This document shows positions 7,254 to 47,851 of a DNA stretch of 50,130 nucleotides, piece after piece (the first letter of the stretch is position 1; the number at the start of each line of letters is the position of its first letter). Location: assembly GCA_902783115.1 (NCBI GenBank), contig CACZPW010000225.1, forward strand, positions 1-50,130. Direction: 5' to 3'. Source of the DNA: an uncultured Ruminococcus sp. (GTDB lineage: Bacteria > Bacillota > Clostridia > UBA1381). Below the pieces are notes generated by a model. It did no database searches. It was not told the origin of the DNA and worked only from the letters and a program-made list of their open reading frames with translations. A program made the translations under genes and the position numbers.

Positions 7254-7317
7254 TAAAAAAACTCCTTTCTGCCGCAACCGTGTGCGGACACAATATAATT
7301 CCCGATACTACAATTAT

Positions 7318-29463: not shown

Positions 29464-29612
29464 AAATCAATAAACTTTGAAAATACGGAAAGATTCCTAT
29501 ACATCCGTAATAATGACCTTGAGTTCAGACTTGTAACTGTGCTCATGCAGTGTTTAGGGATTATTCTGACGGCGGTACACGGCTGTTTGTTTGTGTACAT
29601 CGGGAGGTAAAT

Positions 29613-32600
29613 ATGAAAAAATATGTAGCAGCCTTAATCAGCTTGACAATGATTATAGGTACGCTTCCTTCGCCCGCAGTTATGGCAGAGGGAGCTACAG
29701 ACCTGATTTCAAACGGAAGCTTTGAAAGCTACGATGCGAAGTCTGAATTTCCTGTGGGCTGGAGCTCAGCCGGTGAGAATCTGCTTCTTGAGGGTAACTT
29801 TGAAAACGGCAGCTCCGCCACAAGCAATATAGGAAAATCTCCGACGGGATATGCGTTGAAATGGGTGTCTCCCAGTACCTCTGCCAACAGTGTTGAGGTC
29901 GTCTCCTCTTCATCGGGCGAAAAGGCGGAGCACGGAAACTATTATGCCAAGCTGCAGTTTAAATCTTCAAACTGGGGCGGTATAGGGTATAATAATGCAG
30001 CCAAGCCGGATTATTTGTTTAATACCGCATACGGCGGCTCGTATATATTCCGTGCCGATTATAGGGTGAGCTCGACCGCTGCTTTTAATAAAGCAAGTAT
30101 GTGCGCTTTTTATATCGCAACTGTGGCGGACTCGGAAGTTGCCAATCAAACAAAGTTTGAAACCAGTTATACAGATACTGTTTCATTACCCAAAACATCC
30201 TGGCAAAGCTTTGAAAAAGAGCTTACGCTCCCCGAAAAACCGACGGGAAGTGAGACATATTACGATATTCCGCACGTTTTAAGATTTCAGTTCAGATATG
30301 GCGCAAAGCCCGTACTTTCAACGGGGGCTACTGCGGATCTGTTTGTAGATAATATCCGTTTGGAAAAGTTGGGAAGAACAACATCTGAAAAATCTTATCA
30401 AGGCGACAGGTCTCTTAAATATGTAGGTTATGATGACAATCTTAATGAGGACTGGGTAAGCGATGAAATCAGCTTGAAATCAGGCGGCCTTTATGAGCTT
30501 ACTTACTATTCGGTCGGTGTCGGCGCAAGCGCATATATTGAAGACAGTGACGGTAATAAGCCGAAATTGGAAACTGTCGCAACAGAGACTGACGGAGAAT
30601 GGACAAAGACTACACTCAGATTTACAGCGAATGGAAGTGCGAAGGTCGGCTTGACGGGAGGACTTAATACTGTTTATTTTGACAGTATAAGCCTGAAAGA
30701 AACTTTAGTGCCAAAATCAATCAGTATTACAGCCGAAACCGGGAAAGCGTATGCAAACAGGGGAGCGCAAACTGCGCTTACGGCACAGATTTATGACCAA
30801 TTTGGATCTCTTATGAGCGGTGAGAGTGTGGCATGGAGCATTAAGGAAACGGATGCGGACGCTCAGATCACCACAGGCGGATTACTGACGGTTGGCGACG
30901 GCGCAGCATTAGGTAGTTATATTACGGTTGTTGCAACATCTGCATCCGACAGCAGTGTTTACGGTGAAGCCCGTCTTTTGGTATGCGGTGTTGAGAGTAT
31001 GCCCGTAAAGGTTACGATCAGCGGAAAACAGAGCATTGCCACAGTTACAGGCGGGGCATATACACAGGAAGCATATACAGCAACGGTCTGCGACCAATAT
31101 GATGCAGTTATCAGTGACGGTGTAGACTGGACATGGAATGTTGACGCACAAAAGAGTACAGTCAAAAATATCACTGTTGATAATAGCGGAGTTGTAAAGG
31201 TCAACAGCAATCCGACAGCAGGGATGCTGGTGATCACAGCATCTGCTACTTACGGCGGAGTGAGTGTCGCATCGGAATTTAAAATCACTGTTACTCAATC
31301 GGTAGAGGGTATATTATTTGAGCAGAGAGGAGTATCGGTAGAGCCGGGCGGCGAAAGAAGCATTGCGGTCAAGGTATATCCCGACAATGCCCAAAACAAA
31401 GCCTTTACGGTAAAGAGCAGTGACGAGGCAGTTTTCGAAGCGAGGGTAGAGGGCAGTAATGTTATAGTAAAGTCCGTAGCTGACGGACAGGCTGTGATTA
31501 CCGTCAAATCCGACGACGGCGGCTTTGAGTCTGAGATAACGGCGATAACGGCTAAGAGTGTGTCCTCAGATGTTGACCTTACCTTTGAAAACGGGGGCAC
31601 AGGCTGGAATTTGAATAAATTCAATATAATTCCCAACGCTGATTTTGAGGGAAGAACAGATTGGACAGCCGTAGGTCCTGCAAGCAGGGCTGATATGGGC
31701 TACATTACAAAAGATGATGGTGCGGAATATGTTTATGACGGGACATCATCAATATATATGAAATACGGTGCGTCCGTCGGATCAAATATATGGTCTGCAT
31801 TCAGGAACAATGATGTAATTTCAATAAATCCGCAATCAACATACAGATTGGGTATGGCGGTAAATATACCGGACATTGAATCGGGACAGCGCGTAGCCCT
31901 GAGCTTTAAAATAACGGACAGCAATAATAATCAGATAGTGGGCGAGGATCCGGATATTTTAAGAATTACCGTGCCGACATCTGCATGGGAATATAAGGAA
32001 ACGGAATATACCATACCCGAAAACGGCACCAAAATATCCCTGCTTGCGGCAAGGGGCTTTGCTAAGGCCGGTTTCAAGGCATACTTTGACAATTTGAGAT
32101 TTGAGACCGTGGCAGGTGTCACATCAGATCAATATTACGCCGGCGGTCATTCGATGAGAATAGGAGCATATGACGGTGTTCATTCTGAGGACTGTCAGAC
32201 GGTTATCTCCGATAATATCGCAGTGGAAGCAGGTAAAGCCTACAGCGTTTCCGCAATGCTCAGAGGTGATACAGAGGAAGTTACGGGTGCTGTTGTGATG
32301 GAATACTTAAGCGCAGGCGGCGATGTGGTTAAGACCATTGGCTCAAGCCCGAAGACATGCACCGACTGGACATCTGTTTCAACCTCGGGCACAGCGGCGT
32401 CAGGCTGTAAATACATGAGAATCAAGCTTATGAGCGGCGGGACGGGTATATGCTACTTTGATAATGTCAGCGTTATTGAAGAGGCGGTATATCCGAACAG
32501 CATATCGATAACGGGAGCAGATACCGTGGCGATCCCAAAATCGGGAAAAAAGACTAATAGCTATACGATATCGGTATTGGATCAGTACGGCGAGGTCATG

Positions 32601-33746
32601 GCAGACCGGACTGCAGTGGCAGAGCTTAAAAGCCAGGCTCAGGGCACGGCATTTGCGGCAAATGTCCTTGATGTCGGCTATGATGCCAATCCTACCGAGA
32701 TCACGGTGGTTGCAAGGCTTGGAAACCTTTCGGCAGAAAAGGTAATATCTTTAATAAAGGTCACATCCTTTGAATTTAAGGATCTGCCCGACAGTATCGA
32801 AAGGGGAAATGCGACCGTATCCTATGATTTAAAGACGGTTTTGGGAGTTTCAAATGTAAAAAATGAGCTTGATAATGACAGGGTTGAATACTCCGTTGTT
32901 GAGAATTATGACGGAGTATCTGTTTCGGACGGAAAGCTGGTCATAGCCCCATCGTCAAAGCTCGGCACGGTTAAGGTAAAGGCTGTACTTGTTGATAATG
33001 ACGATGTAAAGGCGGAGCATTCTTTAACTATTAAGAAAGCCGCAAGCACATCAGGTTCCGGCGGATCAGGTTCCGGAGGCGGCTCATCATCGGGTTCATC
33101 GGGCGGCTCGTCGGGAGTAAAATACATCGAAGGCTCTCTTGGGATGCCGGGCACTGTTGATGCACCTACCGGCGGAGCAAAAACACAAGCCGGGACAGCG
33201 ATAAAGGATGTACCGCAGTCACATTGGGCGTATACTGCAGTAAATACATTTGCTCAAAACGGCATTGTCAGCGGACGGGGTGACGGCACATTCGATCCTA
33301 ACGGACTTGTAACCAGAAGTGAGTTTTTGAAAATACTCATATCTGTATTCAGGCTTGAATTATCTTATGAGCTTGTTAATTTCACGGATACGGTAGAAAC
33401 ACAGTGGTATTATCCGTATGTTTCCTCAGCTTTTGCAAACGGAATCACATCAGGATACCCCGACGGCACATTCGGTATAAATAAGCCTGTCACAAGAGAG
33501 GAAATGGCAGTTTTCACAAAACGGGCACTGGAAGTGAAGGGTAAAAAAGTCGATAGCAGCCCGTCCTCTGACGGGGGCTTTGCAGATGCCGATAAGGTGT
33601 CGGATTTTGCCCGTGAAGCTGTGGAGCTTATGCGAAAGTCAGGTTTCCTGTCGGGAAACGATAAGGGAATGTTTAATCCTAAAAATAACGCCACAAGAGC
33701 GGAAACGGCAATGATGCTCTATAGAGTATATTCCGTGCTCTACTAA
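29613..33746 (+). CDS. SLH-anchored cell-surface protein with CBM-like A-B cassettes, several Big_2-type Ig domains, a Gly/Ser linker and three C-terminal SLH repeats
   Basis: GGGAGG RBS (29602-29607) before the ATG at 29613. Signal peptide MKKYVAALISLTMIIGTLPSPAVMA. It carries the NGSFESYDAKSEFPVGWSSAGENLLLEGNFE signature. A Big_2-like segment reads VSVEPGGERSIAVKVYPDNAQNKAFTVKSSDEAVFEA. The linker is SGSGGSGSGGGSSSGSSGGSSG. SLH repeats include IKDVPQSHWAYTAVNTFAQNGIVSGRGDGTFDPNGLVTRSEF. Confidence 0.9.
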   Translation: MKKYVAALISLTMIIGTLPSPAVMAEGATDLISNGSFESYDAKSEFPVGWSSAGENLLLEGNFENGSSATSNIGKSPTGYALKWVSPSTSANSVEVVSSSSGEKAEHGNYYAKLQFKSSNWGGIGYNNAAKPDYLFNTAYGGSYIFRADYRVSSTAAFNKASMCAFYIATVADSEVANQTKFETSYTDTVSLPKTSWQSFEKELTLPEKPTGSETYYDIPHVLRFQFRYGAKPVLSTGATADLFVDNIRLEKLGRTTSEKSYQGDRSLKYVGYDDNLNEDWVSDEISLKSGGLYELTYYSVGVGASAYIEDSDGNKPKLETVATETDGEWTKTTLRFTANGSAKVGLTGGLNTVYFDSISLKETLVPKSISITAETGKAYANRGAQTALTAQIYDQFGSLMSGESVAWSIKETDADAQITTGGLLTVGDGAALGSYITVVATSASDSSVYGEARLLVCGVESMPVKVTISGKQSIATVTGGAYTQEAYTATVCDQYDAVISDGVDWTWNVDAQKSTVKNITVDNSGVVKVNSNPTAGMLVITASATYGGVSVASEFKITVTQSVEGILFEQRGVSVEPGGERSIAVKVYPDNAQNKAFTVKSSDEAVFEARVEGSNVIVKSVADGQAVITVKSDDGGFESEITAITAKSVSSDVDLTFENGGTGWNLNKFNIIPNADFEGRTDWTAVGPASRADMGYITKDDGAEYVYDGTSSIYMKYGASVGSNIWSAFRNNDVISINPQSTYRLGMAVNIPDIESGQRVALSFKITDSNNNQIVGEDPDILRITVPTSAWEYKETEYTIPENGTKISLLAARGFAKAGFKAYFDNLRFETVAGVTSDQYYAGGHSMRIGAYDGVHSEDCQTVISDNIAVEAGKAYSVSAMLRGDTEEVTGAVVMEYLSAGGDVVKTIGSSPKTCTDWTSVSTSGTAASGCKYMRIKLMSGGTGICYFDNVSVIEEAVYPNSISITGADTVAIPKSGKKTNSYTISVLDQYGEVMADRTAVAELKSQAQGTAFAANVLDVGYDANPTEITVVARLGNLSAEKVISLIKVTSFEFKDLPDSIERGNATVSYDLKTVLGVSNVKNELDNDRVEYSVVENYDGVSVSDGKLVIAPSSKLGTVKVKAVLVDNDDVKAEHSLTIKKAASTSGSGGSGSGGGSSSGSSGGSSGVKYIEGSLGMPGTVDAPTGGAKTQAGTAIKDVPQSHWAYTAVNTFAQNGIVSGRGDGTFDPNGLVTRSEFLKILISVFRLELSYELVNFTDTVETQWYYPYVSSAFANGITSGYPDGTFGINKPVTREEMAVFTKRALEVKGKKVDSSPSSDGGFADADKVSDFAREAVELMRKSGFLSGNDKGMFNPKNNATRAETAMMLYRVYSVLY

Positions 33747-33829
33747 GTGGTATTTTACGAAAAACGGCGGCTTTTAACCGGCCGGGTAAGTCATTTAAGC
33801 GTATAAATACCGGGAAGGAATGATGCAGA

Positions 33830-36484
33830 ATGTTAAAAAAGATAATAAGCAGTTTTCTGACACTGTTGATGCTTGTGAATTTGTCGGCATTTGCGGTAAT
33901 GGCACAGGACGATATAACAGGAAGCAAATTTGAAAAGGAAGCGCGTATTCTTGCCGCCTTGAATATAATGGGCGGTTACAAGGACGGCAGTTTTCGACCC
34001 GATGCCCAGATAAGCCGTGCGGAGTATGCAGATATCATAGCAAGGATCATGTTTGACACCGGCGGTTACAGTGTTCAGGATGCGTACTTTGTTGATGTGC
34101 AGGCAACGCATTGGGCTGCACCGTCAATTTATATGTTGGCGGATATGGGAATTATTAACAAATCAACACGGTTTAAGCCCGATGAGGCGCAGACCTGTTA
34201 TGATGCTGTGCGCGTTCTTTTAAATCTTTTGGGATACGGCGAACATGCGGCCTCCAACGGCGGATATCCCGAAGGCTATTTAAGTGTTGCCAATTCTCAA
34301 CAGCTTTTAAACAATGTTGTTATTACAACTGATAATATGGGAATGACAAGAGGTAATGTGGCAAGGTTGATTTATAATGCACTTGATATAAAGTTTGCTC
34401 ACATTGATGATAGAGATGCAGACCAGACGATACTTAGCTGGAAACATATTATCTCAGGTACCGGTACGGTGTGTGCCGTTCACGATGCGGCAATAGACGG
34501 TTATTCAAATGTTGGGATAGAAGAGGTGCTTATCGTTGATAATAACGGCGATGCACATCTTGTGAATATCGGTGATACAGATGTTTCGTCCATGCTCGGA
34601 CAAAGAGGCAGATATTACATAGACGAAAATGAGGAGATACTTCTCTATTTCGGTGGAAGCGGCAGCAGCTCGGACGAGTTTTATATCAGTGCAGACAGCA
34701 TTGAAGAGGTAGGCGAGGACTATATCGAATACATAAAAAATGACCGTACACAGCGGGTATCGTTTTCTCCCTCAATAGCTGTCATTGTAAACGGCGAAAG
34801 GATCTACAGTGAAAATCCCACAAGCTATATGTGGCCTGAGCTTGGCGGTATAAGGCTTAAAAAGAGCAGCGGAAACTCAAAATATGATATTGCGTATGTA
34901 AGCTCTTATGAAGCGTACATTGCCGATGTAGCCATATCGACAGAGGGAAAGCTGACATTTAAGTCGGGTATAAGCAGCAGACAATATATTTTGATAGACG
35001 ATTATGCCCGGGCTGAAATTACAAGAGACGGACAAGAAGCCCGGCTAAAGGATATTCAGGAATGGGATGTTATACATATTGCAGAAAAAAGAGATAAAAG
35101 TGCAATTACCATAAGTGCATCATCAGGTAACAGGGTAAGCGGCGCAATAGACAAAATCGGAAGTGATACGGTTACCATCGGTGGTAAGGAATACCGTGTG
35201 GATTGGAGGGTTGCCGAATCGGATTTGTACCCTGCATTAAGGTTGACCACTACAGGAATCTTTTACTACAATATAAACAATGAGATTTTCGCGTGGAAAA
35301 TCGATAATTCAATCGACGGAACATACGGTTATTTGAAAAATCTCTTTGTTGACGAGGAAGACAGAGAAGCGGATTCCGCAATCTATACCATGGACGGAGA
35401 GTTTATCAAATATGAATATGATAAGCGTGTTGTCATTAACGGAGTGGCTTATCAGAATTCGGAGCTTAAAAATGCTGTGGATATATACGATGGAGTAGAG
35501 GTAAAGGATCAGCTTATAAGGTACACCACGGGTGTAAACGGTAAGATCAAAAATATTGAAACGGCTAAAACGCTCGGCGAGAGCAGAAGCTCCAAGTATG
35601 GGTACGACGACTCGCAGTTTACACTCGTACTCAAAAACAACAGCGCTTTGTCAAGCTTTATTAAGATGGATCATTTTAATAACGGAAAATTTGATGATAC
35701 ATATTTGGCGGACAAAGATACAAAGGTAATCGTTGTTCCCGAAAATCTTGATAAAAATAAATTTTCGATAATGACGGTCAAGGAAGCGTTTACAGGTAAT
35801 ACCAAATACAGAGACAATAAGCCGCTCGATATCGGAGAGGTCATGCTGTATGATGCGGACCGTTTTCTTACAGTCCCGATAATCGTTTGTAAAACCTCAG
35901 AGACAGATATACTTTCAAATTCAATCGACTACAATTCGGATATGATAATTATTGATGAGTGCGGAGTTGTACGTAATGCGGACAATGAGATCGTGCGCCA
36001 GATAAGCGGACTGTACAAAGGTCAGAGAGTTACTTATGAAGTGGATAATGACATAAATATAGATTTAGACAGCCTGCATTGGGGTGTAGGAATTCAGTTC
36101 AGTCTGAATAAAGACAATGTAATTGCGGGCATCCGTGTGTTGTTTGATATTGAGAACAGTAAAGATCCTTATGTTGTGTCAAGCGATAATGTTGTGGGCA
36201 AAAATGAAACGGCGGGCTGGAACAGTAATCAGCTTATCTATTACGGAAATGTATACGATAAAAAGGATGACGGTTCCCAGATTATGATTAACACAAATTA
36301 TGCTTGGGATCATTACAGGGGCTTTTTGTCAACCAATATGCGTGTCTATAAATATAATGCAGGATCGCATACGGTGGCAAATGCAAGCTACAGCGATTTG
36401 ATGGGTACAAGATCAAACCCTCAAAAGGTGGTATTCAGAGCATACCGTTCTTTGGTCAGGGAATTGATCATTATTGAGGATTGA
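33830..36484 (+). CDS. SLH-domain cell-surface protein (884 aa) whose remainder has no recognised function
   Basis: Signal peptide MLKKIISSFLTLLMLVNLSAFAVMAQ. N-terminal SLH repeats are ALNIMGGYKDGSFRPDAQISRAEYADIIARIM and FVDVQATHWAAPSIYMLADMGII. I recognised no catalytic motif in the remaining ~700 aa. Confidence 0.85.
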   Translation: MLKKIISSFLTLLMLVNLSAFAVMAQDDITGSKFEKEARILAALNIMGGYKDGSFRPDAQISRAEYADIIARIMFDTGGYSVQDAYFVDVQATHWAAPSIYMLADMGIINKSTRFKPDEAQTCYDAVRVLLNLLGYGEHAASNGGYPEGYLSVANSQQLLNNVVITTDNMGMTRGNVARLIYNALDIKFAHIDDRDADQTILSWKHIISGTGTVCAVHDAAIDGYSNVGIEEVLIVDNNGDAHLVNIGDTDVSSMLGQRGRYYIDENEEILLYFGGSGSSSDEFYISADSIEEVGEDYIEYIKNDRTQRVSFSPSIAVIVNGERIYSENPTSYMWPELGGIRLKKSSGNSKYDIAYVSSYEAYIADVAISTEGKLTFKSGISSRQYILIDDYARAEITRDGQEARLKDIQEWDVIHIAEKRDKSAITISASSGNRVSGAIDKIGSDTVTIGGKEYRVDWRVAESDLYPALRLTTTGIFYYNINNEIFAWKIDNSIDGTYGYLKNLFVDEEDREADSAIYTMDGEFIKYEYDKRVVINGVAYQNSELKNAVDIYDGVEVKDQLIRYTTGVNGKIKNIETAKTLGESRSSKYGYDDSQFTLVLKNNSALSSFIKMDHFNNGKFDDTYLADKDTKVIVVPENLDKNKFSIMTVKEAFTGNTKYRDNKPLDIGEVMLYDADRFLTVPIIVCKTSETDILSNSIDYNSDMIIIDECGVVRNADNEIVRQISGLYKGQRVTYEVDNDINIDLDSLHWGVGIQFSLNKDNVIAGIRVLFDIENSKDPYVVSSDNVVGKNETAGWNSNQLIYYGNVYDKKDDGSQIMINTNYAWDHYRGFLSTNMRVYKYNAGSHTVANASYSDLMGTRSNPQKVVFRAYRSLVRELIIIED

Positions 36485-36525: not shown

Positions 36526-37293
36526 ATGGTTAAAGGAATAGTTACCGATATACAGCGGGCATCGTTTCACGATGGGTACGGAATACGGACGACGGTTTTT
36601 TTAAAGGGTTGTCCGCTCTCATGTAAGTGGTGCCATAATCCGGAATGTATATCATTTGAAAAAGAGATAATGGAATACCCCGAAAAATGTATCCATTGCG
36701 GAAAATGCTCAGAGGGTTGCTTTTCGGGCGCAAGGGTAGTCTGCGGACGGGAATTGACTGCACGGGAGGTGCTTGAAGAAATAGATGAGGATAGGAGCTA
36801 TTACGGTAATGACGGGGGCGTAACGGTTTCCGGCGGTGAGCCCATGGCTCAAAAGGACTTTGCAAATGAGCTGATAGACATTTGCCGTGAACAAAAAATA
36901 AGCTGTGCCATGGAAACATCACTGATATATTTTGATGAAAAGATTTTAAAAAAACTTGATTTTATAATGGCGGATCTCAAGATTTGGGACAGCGGTATTC
37001 ATAAGGCATATACAGGTGTCGGGAATGAAGTGATCAAAGAGAATTTTAAAAAGCTCAACGGATTGAATATCCCCATAATCGCAAGAACGCCCGTCATTCC
37101 GGGAGTAGAACAGGGAATAGATGAAATTTCGGAGTTTTTAAAAGGCCTTTCTAACGTTGTAAGGTATGAGCTTTTGCCGTACCACCCGCTCGGGATCTCA
37201 AAAGCGAAGGCACTAAAAAGGGCGGTTGAGGAATTTAATATACCGTCTGCGGAATACATGGAGGAGTTAAAAAAATATGCTTACATACGATGA
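36526..37293 (+). CDS. Glycyl-radical enzyme activating enzyme (radical SAM) with one extra ferredoxin-like Cys cluster
   Basis: The radical-SAM motif is CPLSCKWCHNPE. The additional cluster is CIHCGKCSEGC. The SAM-binding-like segment is GGVTVSGGEPMAQ. The gene overlaps the following GRE gene by 17 nt. Confidence 0.9.
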   Translation: MVKGIVTDIQRASFHDGYGIRTTVFLKGCPLSCKWCHNPECISFEKEIMEYPEKCIHCGKCSEGCFSGARVVCGRELTAREVLEEIDEDRSYYGNDGGVTVSGGEPMAQKDFANELIDICREQKISCAMETSLIYFDEKILKKLDFIMADLKIWDSGIHKAYTGVGNEVIKENFKKLNGLNIPIIARTPVIPGVEQGIDEISEFLKGLSNVVRYELLPYHPLGISKAKALKRAVEEFNIPSAEYMEELKKYAYIR

Positions 37294-39487
37294 CAGATTG
37301 AAGCTTATGCGTGAAACAAAAATCAAGCATACTTTTGAAAAAAGAACACAAAACGGGTATACCGATGTCGATGATTACGGTACTGTTCCCATTACGGACG
37401 GTTATGATGTTGAGCCGTGGTATAACGCTATGGACGGCAGATTTTTCGGCTATGAGGGAATGTGTGAAAACTTCTGCCGCGTGATCGATGCGCATCCTGC
37501 GTATGTCGATCCCATGGAGATGCTTTGCGGCAGGTGGCGTGATATGCTTGAAAATTACCGGGGTGATGTAAATTATCTTCCCGATTGGATAAAAAATAAG
37601 TCAAAGCTTATGGACCGTATAAAAGGCGGTGATGGGTGCAGCAGAAACTGGAACGAGCAACGGTTTCCCTATGACGATTTAAAGCCGTTACAGGAAAAGT
37701 ATAATATCGAATCCGGCATAGAAGGCAATTCACATCTTGCCTGTGATTACCGCATCGGTTTTTCGCTTGGGTTTGGCGGACTTTTGGATAAAATAGAAAA
37801 ATACAGAAAAATAAATCCCGATAAATCCGATTTTTATGATGCGGAGGAAAAGACCCTTCTTGCAATAGTCAGATTTATCGACAGGCATATTGAAAAAACA
37901 GATGAGCTTTTAAAAACAGAGGACAGAAAAGAGATAAGAGCAAGTCTTGAAACTATGAAACAGGTTTGCCAAAACATAAGGACAGGCGCACCAAAGACAT
38001 TCCATGAGGCGTGTCAGTGGACAGCGTTCTTTATTTGTGCGTCAAGGATTTATACCCGCGACGGCGCGGGGTTTCAGATGGATACGCTTTTGTATCCGTA
38101 CTATAAGCGTGATATTGAGGCAGGGATTTTGGACGATGAAACGGCAAAATTCTTAATTGCAAATCTTTTATTGATCGATCCGCACTATTACCAGATCTCA
38201 GGCGTTGACGAAAACGATAACGATATGACAAACCACCTTTCATACCTTATATTGGAGGCGGCGGACAGTATAGATATTGCCTGCAACCTGACTGTAAGGG
38301 TACATAAAAACTGCGACAGAAAGTTTTTTGAAAAGGCGGTATATTATCTGCTTAAAAACAAAAACGGCTGGCCGAGATTCTGTAATGATGACGCCCTTTG
38401 TAACGGATATATGAAAAACGGAGTCGATAAAAAGACGGCAAGGGAAAGAATAGCGGTAGGCTGTAACTGGATGTGTGTTCCGGGTAAGGAATTTCCGATG
38501 AACGACACGGTAAAGATAAATATAGCAAAGGTCATGGAAGCGGCGCTTTTTGATATGCGAAACGAGGCTCTGAGGAGTACCGAAAGGCTTTTTGAGTTAT
38601 TTAAAGAGCATCTTAGGATAGCAGTTGACACAACGGCAAAGGGTGTGAATCTTCATATAGACCATCAGGCGGAGGTAACGCCCGAACTTGTAATGAATCT
38701 TATGATGGAAAATACCATAGAACAAGGCGAGGATATTTCAAGATGTGCCTCATTGTATACGGTAGGTGTTGACGGTGCGGGACTTGCGGTAGTTGCGGAT
38801 TCGTTTGGAGCACTCCAAACAAGAGTGGAACAGGAAAAGGTGCTTACATGGGATGAGGTATATGAAGCTCTTGACAATAATTTTGAGGATGAGAGAACGC
38901 GCCTTATCTTAAACAGCGCACCCAAATACTGTCATGGTAACACCGTATCGGATGAATGGGCAAAGAGGCTTACGGATTGTTGGGTGGAAAGTATAGTAAA
39001 TCAGAAGATGCCGGAGGGCAGATGCCTTGTTCCGGGCTGGTTTTCGTGGGCAAGAACGATCGAATACGGCTCAAAGGTAGGAGCTACGCCAAACGGAAGA
39101 AGAAAGGGCGAGCCTATATCGCATGGCGCAAACCCGAATCCGCATTTCAGGGCTGACGGAGCACCTACGGCACAGTCAAACGGAATAGCGTCTGTTCAGT
39201 GCGGTTATGGGAATACGGCACCGCTTCAGATAGAGTTTGACCCCAAGCTTGCGGCTGATGAAAAGGGTGTTGAGATAGTGGGAAAACTGATATTGGGACA
39301 TTTTGAACAGGGCGGAACGCTGATAAACATAAATATACTTGATAAGGAAACGATATTGGAGGCAAACAAGGATCCCGATCTGTACCCCGACCTTGTGGTA
39401 AGGGTAACAGGCTTTACAGCGTATTTTGCAAGCCTTTCACCAAAATTCCGCCAGCTTGTAGTGGACAGATTTTTAGAAGGAGTATAA
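37277..39487 (+). CDS. Glycyl-radical enzyme (PFL-superfamily, 736 aa) with an atypical Cys loop
   Basis: GGAGGAG RBS at 37261-37267. The C-terminal glycyl-radical motif is VVRVTGFTAYFASLSPKFRQLVVDR (Gly codon 39410-39412). The Cys loop is AVGCNWMCVPGKE (Cys codon 38462-38464). The family-typical ATPNGRRKGEPISHGANP...GAPTA is present. Confidence 0.9.
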   Translation: MLTYDDRLKLMRETKIKHTFEKRTQNGYTDVDDYGTVPITDGYDVEPWYNAMDGRFFGYEGMCENFCRVIDAHPAYVDPMEMLCGRWRDMLENYRGDVNYLPDWIKNKSKLMDRIKGGDGCSRNWNEQRFPYDDLKPLQEKYNIESGIEGNSHLACDYRIGFSLGFGGLLDKIEKYRKINPDKSDFYDAEEKTLLAIVRFIDRHIEKTDELLKTEDRKEIRASLETMKQVCQNIRTGAPKTFHEACQWTAFFICASRIYTRDGAGFQMDTLLYPYYKRDIEAGILDDETAKFLIANLLLIDPHYYQISGVDENDNDMTNHLSYLILEAADSIDIACNLTVRVHKNCDRKFFEKAVYYLLKNKNGWPRFCNDDALCNGYMKNGVDKKTARERIAVGCNWMCVPGKEFPMNDTVKINIAKVMEAALFDMRNEALRSTERLFELFKEHLRIAVDTTAKGVNLHIDHQAEVTPELVMNLMMENTIEQGEDISRCASLYTVGVDGAGLAVVADSFGALQTRVEQEKVLTWDEVYEALDNNFEDERTRLILNSAPKYCHGNTVSDEWAKRLTDCWVESIVNQKMPEGRCLVPGWFSWARTIEYGSKVGATPNGRRKGEPISHGANPNPHFRADGAPTAQSNGIASVQCGYGNTAPLQIEFDPKLAADEKGVEIVGKLILGHFEQGGTLININILDKETILEANKDPDLYPDLVVRVTGFTAYFASLSPKFRQLVVDRFLEGV

Positions 39488-39552: not shown

Positions 39553-40578
39553 ATGAAATATAAAGAGTTGGTAAAAAGAGTTGCAGACAGAATGATCGAT
39601 GAAAACCCTGTTTCGAGAGTTATGACAATAACTGAATTTGACTGGGTTGACGGCGTAGGAATGTACGGTCTGCTTCGTGCGGCGCAAAAATACGGTTTTG
39701 ATGAATATGTACGGTTTATGAAGCAATGGGTGGAAAGCAATAAAGACAAGGCATACCGTATAAACACCGTAAACGGCACGGCTGCAATGATCGCAATATT
39801 GGATATGTGCGGCGGCTTAGACGATGAAAATATAGATTTGTGCAGATATGTGGGCGAGTATATCATAAACGATGCGGACAGAACAGACAACGGAGCGCTT
39901 GAGCATACGGTTACGGACCCGAATTTTGTATTTCATCAGCAGATGTGGGCAGATACTCTGTTTATGAGCTGTATATTCCTTGCAAAGCTCGGCAAGAAAA
40001 CGGGCGAAAAGAAATATGCCGATGAGGCTGTAAAACAGCTCAGGCTGCATCATAAATTCCTCAAAGACAAAGAAACGGGCTTGTTTTTCCACGGCTATTC
40101 CTGTATAACTAAGGATAATATGTCATCTATTGACTGGGCGAGAGCCAATGCGTGGATCACGGCAAGTACGGTAGAGATATTGGAACTCTTACCTGCGGAT
40201 TTTGAGGGCAGGGACGAAATACTTTACTCATTAAACGAGCAGGTCGAGGGATATGCAAAGTATCAGCGCAGCAGCGGTATGATCACAACCATTATCAATG
40301 ATCCGACAAGTTATGAGGAAACCTCCGCTACAGCAGGCATGGCGTACGGTATATGCAGAGGAATTAAAGACGGTTATATTGACGCCAAATATGCAGATGT
40401 ATATAAAAGAGCGGTTGACGGTGTTATAAGAATGATTGACAGTGAGGGATATGTTGGCGGCGTGTCTTCGGGAACTCCTGTTATGCCCGATGCACAAGGC
40501 TATAAGGACATCATCATTGAGCCGATCTTATACGGACAGGCACTAACTGTAATGATGTTGTGTGAAGTCGATGGCTGA
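39553..40578 (+). CDS. GH105/GH88-type unsaturated (rhamno)galacturonyl/glucuronyl hydrolase, cytoplasmic
   Basis: No signal peptide. Motifs are WVDGVGMYGLL, MWADTLFMSCIFLAKLG, GLFFHGY, DWARANAW, YEETSATAGMAYG and GVSSGTPV. These match my recollection of the YteR/YesR/UGL (alpha/alpha)6 family. Confidence 0.8.
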   Translation: MKYKELVKRVADRMIDENPVSRVMTITEFDWVDGVGMYGLLRAAQKYGFDEYVRFMKQWVESNKDKAYRINTVNGTAAMIAILDMCGGLDDENIDLCRYVGEYIINDADRTDNGALEHTVTDPNFVFHQQMWADTLFMSCIFLAKLGKKTGEKKYADEAVKQLRLHHKFLKDKETGLFFHGYSCITKDNMSSIDWARANAWITASTVEILELLPADFEGRDEILYSLNEQVEGYAKYQRSSGMITTIINDPTSYEETSATAGMAYGICRGIKDGYIDAKYADVYKRAVDGVIRMIDSEGYVGGVSSGTPVMPDAQGYKDIIIEPILYGQALTVMMLCEVDG

Positions 40579-40682: not shown

Positions 40683-40691
40683 GTGTTTTTT

Positions 40692-41393
40692 ATGCGGATC
40701 TTCAGCAAAGGCTTTAATTTTAATCAGGACGGACCGGGAAACAGGCTTGTCTATCATCTTCAGGGCTGTAATATGAGGTGTATATGGTGTTCCAATCCTG
40801 AAGGTATGTCATTGGACGGGGGAGAGGAATATACGGTTTTGGAGATGCTTGATGAGTGCATAAGGAGTAAACTGATGTTTTTTTCCGGCGGAGGGGTCAC
40901 ATTCACAGGCGGTGAGGCAACAGTGCAGTATAGCGAGCTTCAAGAGCTTATAAAGCTCTTGAAGAGCGAAAATATCCACACCTGCATTGAAACAAACGGG
41001 ACATCGAAAGGGCTTACAGAGCTTTTGCAATATATTGATTATCTGATAATGGATTTTAAACACTACGATAGCAGAACACTGGAAAAATACACAGGCATCG
41101 GGAACGATACGGTAAAAATGAATTATGAAAGCAACTGTAAAACCGGAAGACAGCAGCATATAAGGATCCCGTTGATCAATGGAATAAATACGGATGATCC
41201 AAACGGATTTGCAGAGTATTTTTCAAGATTTGATACAAAAAACACCGTGTTTGAGTTTTTGTCCTACCACGAGTATGGCAGGCAAAAATGGAAAGGTGAG
41301 TATAAAGTAAAAAATGGATTTGTTCCGTCCGAAACGCTTGAAAAGTTTAAAGAGACCTTTATGGCATATAATCTTAATTTAATAACCACATAG
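40692..41393 (+). CDS. Glycyl-radical enzyme activating enzyme, minimal PflA-like type with no ferredoxin insert
   Basis: The radical-SAM motif is GCNMRCIWCSNPE and the SAM-binding-like segment is GGGVTFTGGEATVQ. I prefer the ATG at 40692 (GAGGTG RBS 6 nt upstream) over the track GTG at 40683. Confidence 0.9.
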   Translation: MRIFSKGFNFNQDGPGNRLVYHLQGCNMRCIWCSNPEGMSLDGGEEYTVLEMLDECIRSKLMFFSGGGVTFTGGEATVQYSELQELIKLLKSENIHTCIETNGTSKGLTELLQYIDYLIMDFKHYDSRTLEKYTGIGNDTVKMNYESNCKTGRQQHIRIPLINGINTDDPNGFAEYFSRFDTKNTVFEFLSYHEYGRQKWKGEYKVKNGFVPSETLEKFKETFMAYNLNLITT

Positions 41394-41405
41394 GAGGTGC
41401 TGATT

Positions 41406-43733
41406 ATGTTTGGAATTTACAAAAGCGGTGAAATCACTCAAATGGCAAAGGAGCTCTATAAGGAAGAAAGGCAAATAAAAAGACTTGACGGATGGTTCAG
41501 AGCAAAAGAAATTGAGATGCTGGCAAATGAGAAATACTCTGACTGCACTCCCGACGTTAAGCAAGCATACCTTCTGTGCGAGGTTTTAAAGGCGATCCCC
41601 ATATCCATAAGCGACAATGCGATTTTTGCGGGAACCCAGCGCGATGCTTTTGCAAAAAGCTATGCGCTCATCAACCCGTCCTTTACTGTTGAGGGGTTTT
41701 CGGGGTATTGCGACCCTATGGCAATATATAATGATATTGAGCCAAACGATGAATTTACAAAAGAGCGAATAGATAAGGTACGCTCCTTTACGGCAAAAAC
41801 AAAAATGGTTGAAATGCTAAATAAAACCTATGCTGAAGCGGAAAATTATACAAAAGAGGTCATATTTTTTGTCGAACAGGTAACGGGACATGTGATTCCG
41901 GATTTCAGGTCTGCGTTGAAATACGGCGTTGATGCGCTTATTGAAGAAGCAAATTCAAAGACGGGCGAGTTTTATAAAGCCGCAGCAATAGCCCTTAGCG
42001 GTGTAAAAATTCTTGCGGACAGATATATAGGACTTATCAGGGAGCAAAAGCAAAGCTGTACACAAAAAAGGCTTGAACAGCTTAAAATTCTTGAGGAGAC
42101 GCTTGTAAATATTTCATCTGAGGGCGCAAAAAATCTGTATGAAGCGATCCAACTGTACATTTTACTGTGGGAGATTATGTGTATCGAACAGGCGCCCAAT
42201 CCATACGCCTTTTCCGTGGGTAATGCGGACAGGATTTTTGAGCCCTACAGAGGTGGGCTTTCAAGGGAGGAAGCAAGCGAGCTGTTCAAGCATTTTCTTG
42301 TTTTCTACAATGTAGGCGACCGCAGCTGGGCTATTTCTCAGAATGTTCTTATCAGCGGCAGGGATATTGACGGCAATGACCTCACAAATACAATGTCCTA
42401 TGCTATTATGGACGCATACTATGATATGAATTTACCGCAGCCCATCTTGTCGGTGAAGCTGCATAAGAATACCCCGCAAGAGCTATATGCCCAAATGGGA
42501 AGATTTTTCTTTTCGCCCGGGGTACTTACGCCGTCGCTATTCAATGATGACGCATTGTTTGAGGTCTTGAAGAATAACGGAGTGGATGCGGAGGATATTC
42601 CCGATTATTCTGTAGCGGGCTGTCAGGAGCCGCTGATTATGGGAAGAGATAACGGCAATACAACAAACAGTTGGCTTAATCTTCCAAAGGTGCTTGAAAT
42701 GGTTTTAACGGGAGGCTGTTCCACAATAACGGGTGATAAACTTATAAATACGCCTCCGTATACCCTTGAAAACATAAGAGATGTGTTTTACAAAGCATTG
42801 GATAAAGTGTGCGACAAAATGGTTCAGGCGGCAAACGGTGCTTCCTGTGCACTATCAGAGCTCAGAGTGCCGTTTTTAAGCGTGTTTATGGGCGGGCTTA
42901 CATCTGGTGCGGATATGCGCGATACTAAAAAGCAGGGCACAAAATATAACGGAAGCGGGTGTTTGGTGCACGGGCTTAGTGTTCTTGCCGATTCGTTTGT
43001 CGCCATTGATGAGTTTGCAAAAAAATATCCCGATGGAAAGGAAATGCTCATAAGTGCGATAAAGAGTGATTTCGAAGGCTATAAAGATTTAAGGGAATTT
43101 CTTTTATCATGCCCAAAGTTTGGGAACAATACAGAGGTTGTTGATAAAGAGGCGAGGGAAATTGCCATCAGGGTTTCTAAATTATTACGCTCAAAGAAAA
43201 ACTATTTGGGGAATCCGTTAAGACCTGACTTTTCAAGCCCGTCAACACACCTTACATACGGTTATTGGGTGGGAGCAACCCCGGACGGAAGAAAGAGCCG
43301 CGATATGCTTGGCTACGGTGTCGATCCGCTTTACGGTGAGGCATCAAATGGGTTGGGCTTCAGAATGCTTTCAAATATGCAGCTTCCGTTTGAAGAATTT
43401 AACGGCGGGTATGCCTCGCATCTTGGTATTGATCCAAAATACTTTGCAGGCGGTGATTACGGAGAAAAGGGAGTAGCATTCTATCAAAACATTGTCCGCC
43501 CGCTGTTCTTTAATGAGCTTAAAGACGGTGTATCGCCTTTTTATCTGTATGTAAATGTAACCACGCCCGAAACCTTGAGAAAGGTTTTGGCGAATCCGCA
43601 AAAATATGCGCCAAGCGGCGTGTATATAATGAGAATACACGGAACATTTGTGAATTTTCTCGATTTATCGCCACAGATACAGCGGGATATTATTACAAGG
43701 CTTGATCTTAAATCAACATCAATGGGTTGTTAG
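41406..43733 (+). CDS. Glycyl-radical enzyme (PFL-superfamily, ~775 aa) with an eliminase-like Cys-x-Glu loop
   Basis: AGGAGG RBS (41392-41397) lies 8 nt before the ATG at 41406 (the track uses GTG 41397). The Cys loop is VAGCQEPLIMG (Cys codon 42621-42623, Glu codon 42627-42629). The glycyl-radical motif is IMRIHGTFVNFLDLSPQIQRDIITR (Gly codon 43641-43643). GATPDGRKSRD is also present. Confidence 0.9.
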   Translation: MFGIYKSGEITQMAKELYKEERQIKRLDGWFRAKEIEMLANEKYSDCTPDVKQAYLLCEVLKAIPISISDNAIFAGTQRDAFAKSYALINPSFTVEGFSGYCDPMAIYNDIEPNDEFTKERIDKVRSFTAKTKMVEMLNKTYAEAENYTKEVIFFVEQVTGHVIPDFRSALKYGVDALIEEANSKTGEFYKAAAIALSGVKILADRYIGLIREQKQSCTQKRLEQLKILEETLVNISSEGAKNLYEAIQLYILLWEIMCIEQAPNPYAFSVGNADRIFEPYRGGLSREEASELFKHFLVFYNVGDRSWAISQNVLISGRDIDGNDLTNTMSYAIMDAYYDMNLPQPILSVKLHKNTPQELYAQMGRFFFSPGVLTPSLFNDDALFEVLKNNGVDAEDIPDYSVAGCQEPLIMGRDNGNTTNSWLNLPKVLEMVLTGGCSTITGDKLINTPPYTLENIRDVFYKALDKVCDKMVQAANGASCALSELRVPFLSVFMGGLTSGADMRDTKKQGTKYNGSGCLVHGLSVLADSFVAIDEFAKKYPDGKEMLISAIKSDFEGYKDLREFLLSCPKFGNNTEVVDKEAREIAIRVSKLLRSKKNYLGNPLRPDFSSPSTHLTYGYWVGATPDGRKSRDMLGYGVDPLYGEASNGLGFRMLSNMQLPFEEFNGGYASHLGIDPKYFAGGDYGEKGVAFYQNIVRPLFFNELKDGVSPFYLYVNVTTPETLRKVLANPQKYAPSGVYIMRIHGTFVNFLDLSPQIQRDIITRLDLKSTSMGC

Positions 43734-43743
43734 GGAGAGGGTT

Positions 43744-45024
43744 ATGAAGGCAATAGGAATTGATATAGGCACGACAAGCGTGTGTGGTGTGGTAATAGAT
43801 GTGCAAAGCGGCGAACTCATAACCTCAACAACCAAAAACAGCGATGCTTTTTTAGCCGGCGTAGCAGACTGGGAAAAAATACAGTCAGTTGACAAGATCA
43901 TGGATGTCGCCGTAAGCATTCTTGACGGGCTCATTGACAGCGATGTGTCTGTGATAGGCGTAACCGGTCAAATGCACGGCATAGTTTATACCGATATAAA
44001 CGCAAATGCGGTAAGCCCGTTATATACATGGCAGGACGGGAGGGGAAACCTGCCGTATAAAGATACAACGTACGCAAAGCATCTGAACAGCTTTTCCGGG
44101 TATGGGAATGTAACAGATTTTTACAACACAGAAAATGGAATAAGACCTAAAAATGCTGAAAGCTACTGTACCATACACGATTATTTCGTGATGAGGCTTT
44201 GTGGCTTGAATGTTCCGGTTATGCACTCAAGCGATGCGGCGAGTATGGGGTGTTACAGTATAAGTGAAAACAGGTTTGACTATGAGTGTAATGTTGATTT
44301 GACTTCGGATTACCGTATAGCCGGTGAGTATAAGGGTATACCCGTAAGTGTAGCGATAGGAGACAATCAGGCAAGTGTATTCTCAACTCTTGCGGATAAA
44401 AACGATATTCTTGTGAATGTAGGAACGGGAAGCCAGATTTCGATCATATCCGACAAACCCGTTGCTGCGGACAATATCGAAACACGACCGTATTTTGAAA
44501 ATGATTACCTGGTTGTCGGCTCGGCACTTTGCGGAGGCAGGGCATATTCGATGTTAAAGGATTTTTACTCGGGTGTTTTTAAGTATATTGAAGATGTCGA
44601 CGATGACAGAGTATACAAAATTATGAGCAAAATGCTCAAGGACGGTGATAAGTCATCCTTAACAGTCGACACCCGGTTTGCGGGGACCAGGAAGGATCCG
44701 AAACATTGCGGGAGCATCAGCGGAATAACCGTGGACAATTTTAAGCCCGCTTATGTTACGGTGGGCGTGCTTGACGGAATGGCGGCGGAGCTTTTTGGGA
44801 TGTATAAGCAGATGAACCGGGTAAGATATGGAATTGTCGGGTCCGGCAACGGAATACGGAAGAATCCGGCACTTGTTAAAAGGTTTGAAATGCTGTTCGG
44901 TACAGAAATGAAAATACCGAAGCATTTGGAAGAAGCTGCTTTCGGAGCGGCGTTGTTCGGTCTGATCTCCTGCGGGATCTTCAAAAATGCTGCGGAAGCA
45001 CAGAAAATTATAAGGTATAACTGA
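43744..45024 (+). CDS. FGGY-family carbohydrate kinase (sedoheptulokinase-like subgroup); substrate unknown
   Basis: GGGAGAGGG RBS before the ATG at 43744. The N-terminal ATPase motif is MKAIGIDIGTTSVCGVVID. It also has GVTGQMHGIVY, AIGDNQASV, NVGTGSQ and GSGNGIRKNPAL. Confidence 0.8.
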   Translation: MKAIGIDIGTTSVCGVVIDVQSGELITSTTKNSDAFLAGVADWEKIQSVDKIMDVAVSILDGLIDSDVSVIGVTGQMHGIVYTDINANAVSPLYTWQDGRGNLPYKDTTYAKHLNSFSGYGNVTDFYNTENGIRPKNAESYCTIHDYFVMRLCGLNVPVMHSSDAASMGCYSISENRFDYECNVDLTSDYRIAGEYKGIPVSVAIGDNQASVFSTLADKNDILVNVGTGSQISIISDKPVAADNIETRPYFENDYLVVGSALCGGRAYSMLKDFYSGVFKYIEDVDDDRVYKIMSKMLKDGDKSSLTVDTRFAGTRKDPKHCGSISGITVDNFKPAYVTVGVLDGMAAELFGMYKQMNRVRYGIVGSGNGIRKNPALVKRFEMLFGTEMKIPKHLEEAAFGAALFGLISCGIFKNAAEAQKIIRYN

Positions 45025-45037
45025 CGGAGAAAATGAT

Positions 45038-46054
45038 ATGATGAACGAGCCGATTTTTTTTGAGAGAAACAGGGTACGGCGTGTGTACACCGGTGGCAGG
45101 CTTTTTGGCGATTTTTTTGGTGATGAGCCTGTGGACGGTTTTATGCCGGAGGAATGGATAGCCTCGTCCGTAGAGGCGATCAACAGGGAAAAGACAAGCG
45201 AAAAAGAGGGTGTTTCCATTGTAAAGGGCAGCGGCATATACTTTGACGAGCTTTTGGAAAAGTATCCCCTTGAAATGCTTGGCAGCAGACAAAAAATGCG
45301 TGTGCTTGTAAAAATATTGGATAGTGCCGTAAGACTTCCCGCACAGGCGCACCCTGATAAGGAGTTTTCAAGAAAATATTTTAATTCGGAGTACGGAAAG
45401 ACAGAGAGTTGGATAATTCTTGATAAAAGGCAGGATGCAAAAATATATTTTGGGTTTAAAGACGGCGTTGACAGAAAACTCTTTTCTGACGCAATAGACG
45501 CAAGTGAAAAAGATAAAAACGCAATGGAAAGACTTATGGAATGTTATGAGCCTCAGATAGGCGATGTCTTTTTAGTCCCCGCCAAAACCGTCCATGCCAT
45601 AGGGGCAGGCTGCCTGATACTGGAGGTTCAGGAACCGACGGATTTTACAATTCAGCCTGAGCATTGGTGTGCAGATTACAGGCTCAGTGATGATGAGATG
45701 TATATCGGGCTTTCGAAAGAGGAAGCAATAGGCTGTTTTAATTTTTGCAAATCGCCCGATACCGGGATCGTCCCCGTAACGGTATATCACAAAGACCGAG
45801 CGAGAGTCGAGAATGTGATAAAGCCGTCAGATACCGGTTGTTTCATCATCAACCGTATTACGCTAAACGGCGGTGAGTACACATTAAGCGTAAATGACAG
45901 CTACGGTGTGTATATTGTAACAGAAGGTACCGGCGAGATTTGCGGCGATGGCTATTCAAAGAAAATACAAAAAGGAGATTACTTTTTTATGCCTGCTTGT
46001 CTTATGGATAGATTTTGTTTAAAAGGCAGTATGAAAGTAACGGAATGTTTTTAA
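45038..46054 (+). CDS. Class-I phosphomannose-isomerase-like cupin (sugar-phosphate or keto-sugar isomerase)
   Basis: VLVKILDSAVRLPAQAHPD, YGKTESWIILD and FLVPAKTVHAIGAGCLILEVQEPTDFT match the type-I PMI metal-site layout (Q/H...E...H). Confidence 0.75.
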   Translation: MMNEPIFFERNRVRRVYTGGRLFGDFFGDEPVDGFMPEEWIASSVEAINREKTSEKEGVSIVKGSGIYFDELLEKYPLEMLGSRQKMRVLVKILDSAVRLPAQAHPDKEFSRKYFNSEYGKTESWIILDKRQDAKIYFGFKDGVDRKLFSDAIDASEKDKNAMERLMECYEPQIGDVFLVPAKTVHAIGAGCLILEVQEPTDFTIQPEHWCADYRLSDDEMYIGLSKEEAIGCFNFCKSPDTGIVPVTVYHKDRARVENVIKPSDTGCFIINRITLNGGEYTLSVNDSYGVYIVTEGTGEICGDGYSKKIQKGDYFFMPACLMDRFCLKGSMKVTECF

Positions 46055-46104
46055 TTTAAACAAATGCAAGTATCATATTGAATAAAAACGGAGTTATTAA
46101 AGAT

Positions 46105-47818: not shown

Positions 47819-47851
47819 AAATATGTAATTTTGATTTCAGGCGGTGCTGAT

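Follow-up and report, generated by a model that had tools for sequence, protein, structure and literature searches.

A Cys-x-Trp clade of glycyl radical enzymes from gut and rumen Clostridia and its association with Gfo/Idh/MocA oxidoreductase genes

Results

GRE-1 and its activase

The DNA analysed here (hereafter the window) is a stretch of 50,130 nucleotides from an uncultured Ruminococcus sp. (contig CACZPW010000225.1), and the gene under study, GRE-1 (37277–39487, forward strand, as are all positions within GRE-1 given below), encodes a glycyl radical enzyme (GRE) of 736 amino acids that belongs to a clade in which the cysteine of the active-site loop is followed, two residues on, by tryptophan (the C-x-W clade). 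Immediately upstream on the same strand lies AE-1 (36526–37293), which encodes a radical SAM glycyl-radical activating enzyme of 255 amino acids (Pfam Radical_SAM and Fer4_12) scoring 253.8 bits against NCBIfam TIGR02494, for which the cut-off is 174. The two open reading frames overlap by 17 nt, including the AE-1 stop codon, an overlap also present in the orthologous loci L001 and L085; and a Shine-Dalgarno sequence, GGAGGAG (37260–37266, forward strand), lies within the 3' end of AE-1, 10 nt 5' of the GRE-1 ATG. The cysteine motifs read from the AE-1 sequence are CX3CX2C and one CX2CX2CX3C; eliminase activases usually have two ferredoxin-like motifs, of which AE-1 has a single one. GRE-1 itself matches Pfam PFL-like (PF02901) at 1e-94 and Gly_radical at 7e-13, and an exact-sequence look-up found no identical protein on record.

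A tryptophan occupies the position of the general-base glutamate

Cys396 (codon 38462–38464), within AVGCNWMCVPGKE, is the thiyl site of the Cys loop G395-C396-N-W398-M-C400-V-P-G-K-E405 (38459–38491), in which Trp398 (38468–38470) stands in place of the general-base glutamate and a further cysteine follows as Cys400 (38474–38476). A reading of the window made from the sequence alone (the sequence-only reading) had assigned the thiyl cysteine to this codon, and this was confirmed by two alignments. Using phmmer against all PDB sequences, Cys396 aligned with Cys433 of glycerol dehydratase (GDH) and Trp398 with Glu435, with the further pairs His153/His164, Asp410/Asp447 and Phe588/Tyr640; and in a MAFFT alignment of 133 sequences Cys396 was the sole invariant column, while the Trp398 column was the glutamate column of 66 C-x-E GREs. 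Because the phmmer and MAFFT columns agree, Cys396 is rightly assigned and the glutamate is truly missing; a misassigned catalytic cysteine was ruled out, as both methods put Cys396 in the universal cysteine column. The C-x-E motif of GRE 1,2-eliminases and isomerases is absent from GRE-1, with Trp398 at the position of its glutamate, and the claim that GRE-1 has neither GCxE nor Cys-Cys was borne out, Trp398 being invariant in that column. Lys413 of GRE-1 aligns with Arg435 of pyruvate formate-lyase (PFL).

All GRE eliminases and isomerases retain CXE, with the glutamate hydrogen-bonded to the substrate; this residue takes the proton from the hydroxyl of the carbon that the thiyl attacks, and the resulting ketyl radical anion expels the beta leaving group, which in GDH is protonated by His164 (PMC13450708). 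Equivalents of the GDH acid pair, His164 (on beta-1) and Asp447, are present in GRE-1. These are His153 (37733–37735), corresponding to the general acid for the leaving hydroxyl, and Asp410 (38504–38506), the position of which is Phe432 in PFL. Glu470 (38684–38686) is an invariant glutamate specific to the clade, placed relative to the pocket by alignment only.

The sequence-only reading took a glutamate at Cys+2 to be the rule outside PFL. This stands for the eliminases and isomerases but not for the superfamily at large; in the alignment, 12 of ~103 distant GRE representatives carry a residue other than Glu or Trp at Cys+2, so Cys-loop diversity exceeds the dichotomy of CXE and CC. These twelve are uncharacterised GREs (P0196, P0202, P0207, P0213, P0229, P0231, P0232, P0241, P0252, P0253, P0259 and P0266) with the loops CST, CAD, CSI, CVG, CVQ, CTG, CNN, CNQ, CNH and CAG.

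At the other end of the radical relay, the glycyl radical fingerprint RVTGFTAYFASLSPKFRQLVVDR (39401–39469) contains Gly712 (codon 39410–39412) and fits RVxG[FWY]x6-8[FL]x4Qx2[IV]x2R at every position but the Gln, where GRE-1 has Arg725. The motif had been described as canonical, which holds for RVTGF against RVxG[FWY] but not for Arg725, a position that is Q in 48% and R in 44% of the clade. Gly712 was kept in 120 of the 120 homologues listed. An identity as an aminoacyl radical enzyme (AARE) was ruled out by the presence of this radical glycine; AAREs, which have Thr, Ser or Ala for Gly, are uncharacterised non-canonical relatives of GREs that are common in gut Clostridia, and they depart from the norm at the radical-storage residue whereas GRE-1 departs from it at the Cys loop and keeps Gly712. 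As judged from the sequence, the Gly712/Cys396 radical relay of GRE-1 is intact, and GRE-1 is very probably an active GRE of a distinct clade.

The C-x-W loop defines a monophyletic clade

Among the 120 homologues listed (76–100% identity, 735–739 amino acids), GCNWMC[VI]PG[KR]E and RVTGFTAY were found in every sequence, and GC[N/H]W was present in all of 83 orthologous loci from reference genomes. A search of 1.84 billion cluster representatives added ~25 full-length families at 26–51% identity whose G-C-x-W loop has N, H, F, Q, G, P or Y at x. Neighbour-joining placed all of the C-x-W sequences (27/27) in one exact clade, free of C-x-E sequences, with a branch length of 0.255, and both alignment and tree separate this clade from every characterised GRE class. 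Trp-for-Glu is therefore a trait of a clade and no accident of a single protein, and the phenomenon is broader than had been held from the window alone. The pentad C-N-W-M-C, the conservation of which had been proposed as a check, was found in all 120 listed homologues, but across the clade only C-x-W is kept.

Several further positions distinguish the clade from C-x-E GREs. Trp398 is found in 100% of C-x-W sequences and 0% of C-x-E GREs (Glu in 100%), and Glu470 likewise in 100% and 0%; Asp410 is present in 100% versus 26%, Glu405 in 88% versus 20% and Thr711 in 88% versus 12%; Trp at residue 166 occurs in 88% of the clade (GRE-1 has Phe) and in 0% of C-x-E GREs; and His153 is common to both (88% and 95% respectively). 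Near Glu470 the motif P-x-P-F-L-S of C-x-E GREs is replaced by P-E-L-V-x-S/N-L, and the clade has aromatic residues on predicted barrel strands at Tyr304/305, Tyr406, Phe588/589 and Trp591. GRE-1 has the traits of the clade, namely Trp at Cys+2, Asp410, Glu470, an RVTG[FY] Gly loop, a length of ~730 amino acids and a place within the monophyletic group.

The second cysteine four residues after the thiyl site, singled out in the sequence-only reading, did not prove to be a general feature; position 400 is Cys in just 24% of clade representatives, although this cysteine is found throughout the GRE-1 subfamily and reappears in several branches outside it, and a role for Cys400 as a clade-wide second catalytic thiol was ruled out by that frequency. 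GRE-1 had also been called unusually short. At 736 amino acids it is indeed short, but the difference is modest and clade-wide, with a median length of 731 amino acids for C-x-W and 788 for C-x-E sequences. Missing from C-x-W sequences are ~63 residues between GRE-1 positions 91 and 146, 17 after position 301 and 12 after position 432; the shortness is due mainly to a remodelled N-terminal region, the catalytic core contributing little to it.

A Gly-loop pattern derived from the clade is matched in at least 593 species genomes that encode a relative of GRE-1. Most carriers are uncultured Clostridia of the gut and rumen, and the clade is common among those of the human, ruminant and poultry gut; two carriers are cultured organisms, Qingrenia yutianensis (78% identity) and Anaerocolumna xylanovorans DSM 12503 (52% identity). 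No NCBIfam model exists for the clade, the best match being to the generic TIGR01774, with 291 bits where the cut-off is 678. A review of June 2026 recognises seven GRE classes and mentions no C-x-W enzyme (PMC13450708); neither a C-x-W GRE nor a GRE-Gfo cassette was the subject of any paper found by full-text literature search, and the Catenibacillus dgpA paper mentions no link to a GRE. One candidate, tetrahydrodaidzein reductase as a GRE, was rejected as an unrelated RVXG coincidence. The C-x-W clade is undescribed in the structures, NCBIfam models and literature searched, none of which yielded a characterised GRE subfamily with a C-N-W loop.

Predicted fold and comparison with known GREs

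An AlphaFold2 model of GRE-1, built on the 133-sequence alignment, had a pLDDT of 93.6 (91–92 across residues 391–410) and a pTM of 0.93. Using Foldseek against the PDB, the model matched 50 GRE chains with the 10-stranded GRE barrel at TM 0.78–0.85 and ~20% identity, among them, at TM 0.80–0.85, the eliminases and isomerases GDH, propanediol dehydratase, PflD, HplG, HypD, CutC and YbiW; neither phmmer nor Foldseek found a close relative of GRE-1 with a solved structure in the PDB.

GDH (1r8w) and 1,2-propanediol dehydratase (5i2g, 9rco) were the top matches in sequence and fold (E 1.5e-55, TM 0.83–0.85), and share with GRE-1 the barrel, the Cys and Gly loops, the equivalents of His164 and Asp447, and an adjacent TIGR02494-type activase. 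GRE-1 nevertheless differs from both in its ~20% identity, in the change from Glu435 to Trp398, in the altered P-x-P-F-L-S motif and in being ~50 amino acids shorter, mostly at the N-terminus; and its loci have no microcompartment or diol-pathway genes, sugar dehydrogenases being usual instead. YbiW and PflD (1,5-anhydrohexitol-6-phosphate isomerases; 8id7, 8id0, 8yjo) act on sugar-derived rings and gave comparable fold scores, but both retain CXE, the glutamates of which (Glu443 and Glu433) are bonded to the C2-OH (PMC13450708), and are partnered by a kinase and an aldolase, a layout that matches a second GRE of the window (GRE-2, below) and not GRE-1. X-succinate synthases and HPAD-type decarboxylases gave the weakest PDB matches, and no conserved family of small open reading frames that could correspond to their small Fe-S accessory subunits was found beside the GRE in the 83 loci.

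Gln484 is an essential residue of phenylacetate decarboxylase (PAD/PhdB) (PMC13450708). This enzyme is an arylacetate decarboxylase with Gln and not Trp, and it has no close sequence relation to GRE-1, decarboxylases standing low among the phmmer matches. Its catalytic cysteine we take to be Cys482, which would place Gln484, a residue other than Glu, at Cys+2.

Gene neighbourhood in orthologous loci

Open reading frames were called in 84 related loci and in the window, and clustered by BLASTP; loci with at least 4.5 kb upstream of the GRE, 63 in number, were treated as informative. An activase lies beside the GRE in 60 of the 83 orthologous loci. Gfo/Idh/MocA oxidoreductases are encoded directly upstream of the activase and GRE in 56/83 loci (160 genes, 2–6 per cassette). 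Also recurring beside the GRE are an AraC regulator in 45/83, an AP_endonuc_2 TIM-barrel protein in 17/83 and a PF12831 FAD oxidoreductase in 12/83. Among the informative loci, at least one Gfo gene occurs in 48, GFO-A in 41 and a DgpA-like gene in 33.

Sub-clustering of the Gfo/Idh/MocA proteins gave a core pair, GFO-A (48 loci) and GFO-B (39 loci). GFO-A has an unusual N-terminal IGF[S/A]HMH motif, and in the cassettes examined, L001 and L025 among them, its gene immediately precedes that of the activase. In these proteins (L025:8156-9250, L001:8157-9257 and 46 other loci) IGF[S/A]HMHVNE stands at the expected Rossmann GxGxxG site, and the nearest solved relative is at E 1e-8 at best; a second Gfo/Idh/MocA paralogue type has an IGLSHIH motif. 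For GFO-B the best solved relative over the full length is DgpA (7xr9, E 1e-53; also 9m3d), and DgpA1 is the best match of another paralogue.

DgpA is the glycoside 3-oxidase of the DgpA/DgpBC (DfgE/DfgAB) system of gut-bacterial oxidative C-glycoside cleavage; the cassette is like that system in encoding DgpA-like oxidases and, in some loci, an AP_endonuc_2 TIM-barrel protein. The known lyase step of that system, however, is performed by metal-dependent DgpBC with no radical enzyme; and the AP_endonuc_2 protein of the cassette instead resembles hydroxypyruvate or 2-oxo-tetronate isomerases. Upstream of the closest homologue (85% identity) are six Gfo genes together with one for an AP_endonuc_2 protein, and a distant clade member adjoins genes for an inositol-1-phosphate-synthase-like enzyme, a NAD epimerase, beta-helix proteins and a sugar ABC transporter. 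The neighbourhoods of P0121, P0125 and P0149, also distant members, showed no informative genes. A second, unrelated GRE was seen beside the C-x-W GRE in four loci; it is a true PFL (ACCVSS) in L048, and has a GCGEY loop in L059 and L061 and a GCNQI loop in L064.

The surroundings of GRE-1 in the window

Upstream of AE-1/GRE-1 the window encodes an AraC/Cache regulator, an ABC sugar transporter and giant SLH/CBM4_9/SASA-esterase proteins; directly downstream, a GH105-type unsaturated uronyl hydrolase (39553–40578, forward strand) matches Pfam Glyco_hydro_88 and has the GH105 structures 3qwt, 3pmm and 4xuv as its nearest PDB entries. AE-1/GRE-1 appears to be a portable pair, which seemingly entered a different, carbohydrate operon with its two genes together.

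Next in order is a second GRE module (40683–47193, forward strand) comprising AE-2, GRE-2 (with a C-x-E loop), an FGGY kinase, an MPI-like cupin and a ROK regulator. The module recurs elsewhere without GRE-1, sometimes together with a TAL/FSA aldolase, and its layout appears to resemble the YbiW/PflD anhydro-sugar pathway. The two activases differ in build, AE-2 (236 amino acids, 40683–41393) being PFL-AE-like and without the ferredoxin-like motif of AE-1 (255 amino acids). GRE-2 (41397–43733, probable start 41406), named 'hypothetical protein' in the sources, has the loop GCQEPLIMG; its Gly loop, MRIHGTFVNFLDLSPxIQxDIITR, was found in 113 of the 120 homologues listed (P0272–P0390; loci L089–L091), the few variants listed being conservative, with the MRIHGTFVNF core always kept. 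The radical glycine is retained there, but the next residue is Thr and not the F/W/Y of the fingerprint, and the Pfam Gly_radical model misses GRE-2.

Seven very large proteins of 884–1622 amino acids are encoded at 240–20515 and 29550–36484. Their Pfam domains are only SLH, CBM4_9, SASA-esterase, Big or copper-amine-oxidase-N, two of them (3507–7277 and 12357–15965) have no significant Pfam match, and no glycoside hydrolase or lyase catalytic domain was recognisable by Pfam in any of the seven; these proteins could represent novel carbohydrate-active enzymes belonging to a polysaccharide locus. The sugar locus is closely followed, on its downstream side, by 47831–48985, which encodes a protein of the Fic/DOC family whose C-terminal domain is a winged helix.

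Discussion

A proposed role in carbohydrate metabolism

GRE-1 and AE-1 can be regarded as a functional two-gene glycyl-radical module of a large, monophyletic and uncharacterised GRE clade, and from the sequence evidence we lean slightly towards that view in conjunction with a carbohydrate substrate. Taken by itself, a carbohydrate- or glycoside-derived compound is rather probable as the substrate of GRE-1. A distinct substrate class, as suggested by the sequence-only reading, fits the different gene neighbourhood of Gfo/Idh/MocA and DgpA-like dehydrogenases; and the distinct mechanism that it also suggested is plausible, with the putative equivalents of the acid pair retained as His153 and Asp410.

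We infer that GRE-1 most likely acts on a keto-, anhydro- or unsaturated-sugar intermediate. Candidates would be a 3-keto-glycoside or keto-sugar; a keto-glycal or anhydro-sugar from oxidative glycoside cleavage; or, in the window, the product of the GH105 enzyme. The partner dehydrogenases would supply keto-sugars or 3-keto-glycosides, from which the Cys396 thiyl would take the hydrogen next to the carbonyl or enol. We propose that a radical beside a carbonyl, being stabilised from the outset and having an acidic hydroxyl, would make a base in the Cys loop dispensable. Trp398 together with Tyr304/305, Tyr406, Phe588/589 and Trp591 could stack on the ring, forming a surface of the kind that typically binds sugars or aglycones; in C-O (or C-C) cleavage the leaving group would receive its proton from His153/Asp410; and the product radical would regain its hydrogen from Cys396. 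Such a mechanism, with the substrate activated beforehand, is specifically possible but somewhat doubtful. Its extension to the whole clade, in which C-x-W GREs would form an eighth GRE functional class performing radical C-O/C-C cleavage of keto-sugars, 3-keto-glycosides or keto-glycal/anhydro-sugar products of DgpA-like NAD-dependent oxidases, with prior oxidation replacing the glutamate base, is tentative and rather doubtful.

A number of observations weigh against this proposal. By tblastn the 50-kb window has no Gfo/Idh/MocA or AP_endonuc_2 gene, unlike orthologues at 82% and 85% identity, which do carry Gfo/Idh/MocA genes; and 15 of the 63 informative loci likewise have no Gfo/Idh/MocA gene, so that the Gfo partnership is not obligatory in cis. 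The partner dehydrogenases gave sub-threshold generic matches to NCBIfam and no equivalog. The orientation of Trp398 and the locations of Glu470, Cys400 and Lys413 are predicted from alignment to solved GREs, and classical eliminase chemistry could be regained through a base relocated to Asp410, Glu405 or Glu470.

Alternative explanations

A relocated base would make GRE-1 a 1,2-eliminase of the classical base-assisted type, with an unoxidised sugar or polyol as its substrate and the Gfo/Idh/MocA enzymes working downstream on the product. His153 and Asp410 match His164 and Asp447 of the dehydratases, which are also the best structural matches, and the clade offers acidic residues at D410 (100%), E470 (100%) and E405 (88%). 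To our knowledge, however, Glu470 maps to no first-shell position in published structures. Given in addition that CXE is kept in every characterised eliminase and isomerase (PMC13450708), we consider this explanation unlikely. It is less likely still, and distinctly improbable, that the substrate is aromatic or hydrophobic (a polyphenol or the aglycone of a C-glycoside), undergoing C-C cleavage or decarboxylation in a Trp-rich pocket adapted to pi-stacking. The candidate pocket positions of the clade are predicted to be rich in aromatics, the DgpA-like partners resemble enzymes of flavonoid C-glycoside metabolism, and Gln484 of PAD would be a precedent for a residue other than Glu at +2 if its cysteine is, as we assume, Cys482; but the loci examined have no small subunits or aromatic-pathway genes near the GRE, the window is a polysaccharide locus, and GRE-1 is less similar to decarboxylases and X-succinate synthases than to eliminases.

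Class III ribonucleotide reductase (RNR) also works without a Glu base. A net reductive deoxygenation of that kind, drawing its reducing equivalents from the Cys396/Cys400 pair or from formate, would suit the invariance of Cys400 in the GRE-1 subfamily and its recurrence in several other branches of the clade, yet only 24% of clade representatives have this cysteine and no thioredoxin or formate genes are conserved near the GRE, so that we regard it as very unlikely. The homologues of GRE-1 are named 'formate acetyltransferase' or 'PFL family protein' in their sources, and PFL/TdcE are of the same superfamily and of similar length. PFL has adjacent cysteines, whereas the loop of GRE-1 is G-C-N-W with its second cysteine at +4 and not +1; the label 'formate acetyltransferase' is untenable because the Cys-Cys pair is lacking, and a PFL function was ruled out by this lack together with a score of 73 bits against the PFL equivalog TIGR01255, far under the cut-off of 994. 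In L048, moreover, a true PFL with an ACCVSS loop adjoins the orthologue. Nor does decay to a non-catalytic paralogue agree with the strong conservation of the cysteine, the glycine and the activase across hundreds of genomes; PFL (formate acetyltransferase) activity and decay are together extremely improbable.

Implications

With the glutamate replaced by an invariant tryptophan and the acid pair kept, either the base has been relocated or the substrate needs none, and in consequence GRE chemistry may exceed the seven classes now recognised (PMC13450708); there is a credible chance that the C-x-W clade represents a new functional class of GRE. A widespread database label, 'formate acetyltransferase', is hereby corrected, and since cultured carriers exist the function of the clade is directly testable. 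The link to genes of the glycoside-3-oxidase type suggests that the clade probably takes part in an unrecognised anaerobic route for diet-derived glycosides or the products of plant polysaccharides. If the reading of C-x-W GREs as an eighth class is true, gut Clostridia would gain a radical route for glycosides and sugar derivatives that resist polar elimination.

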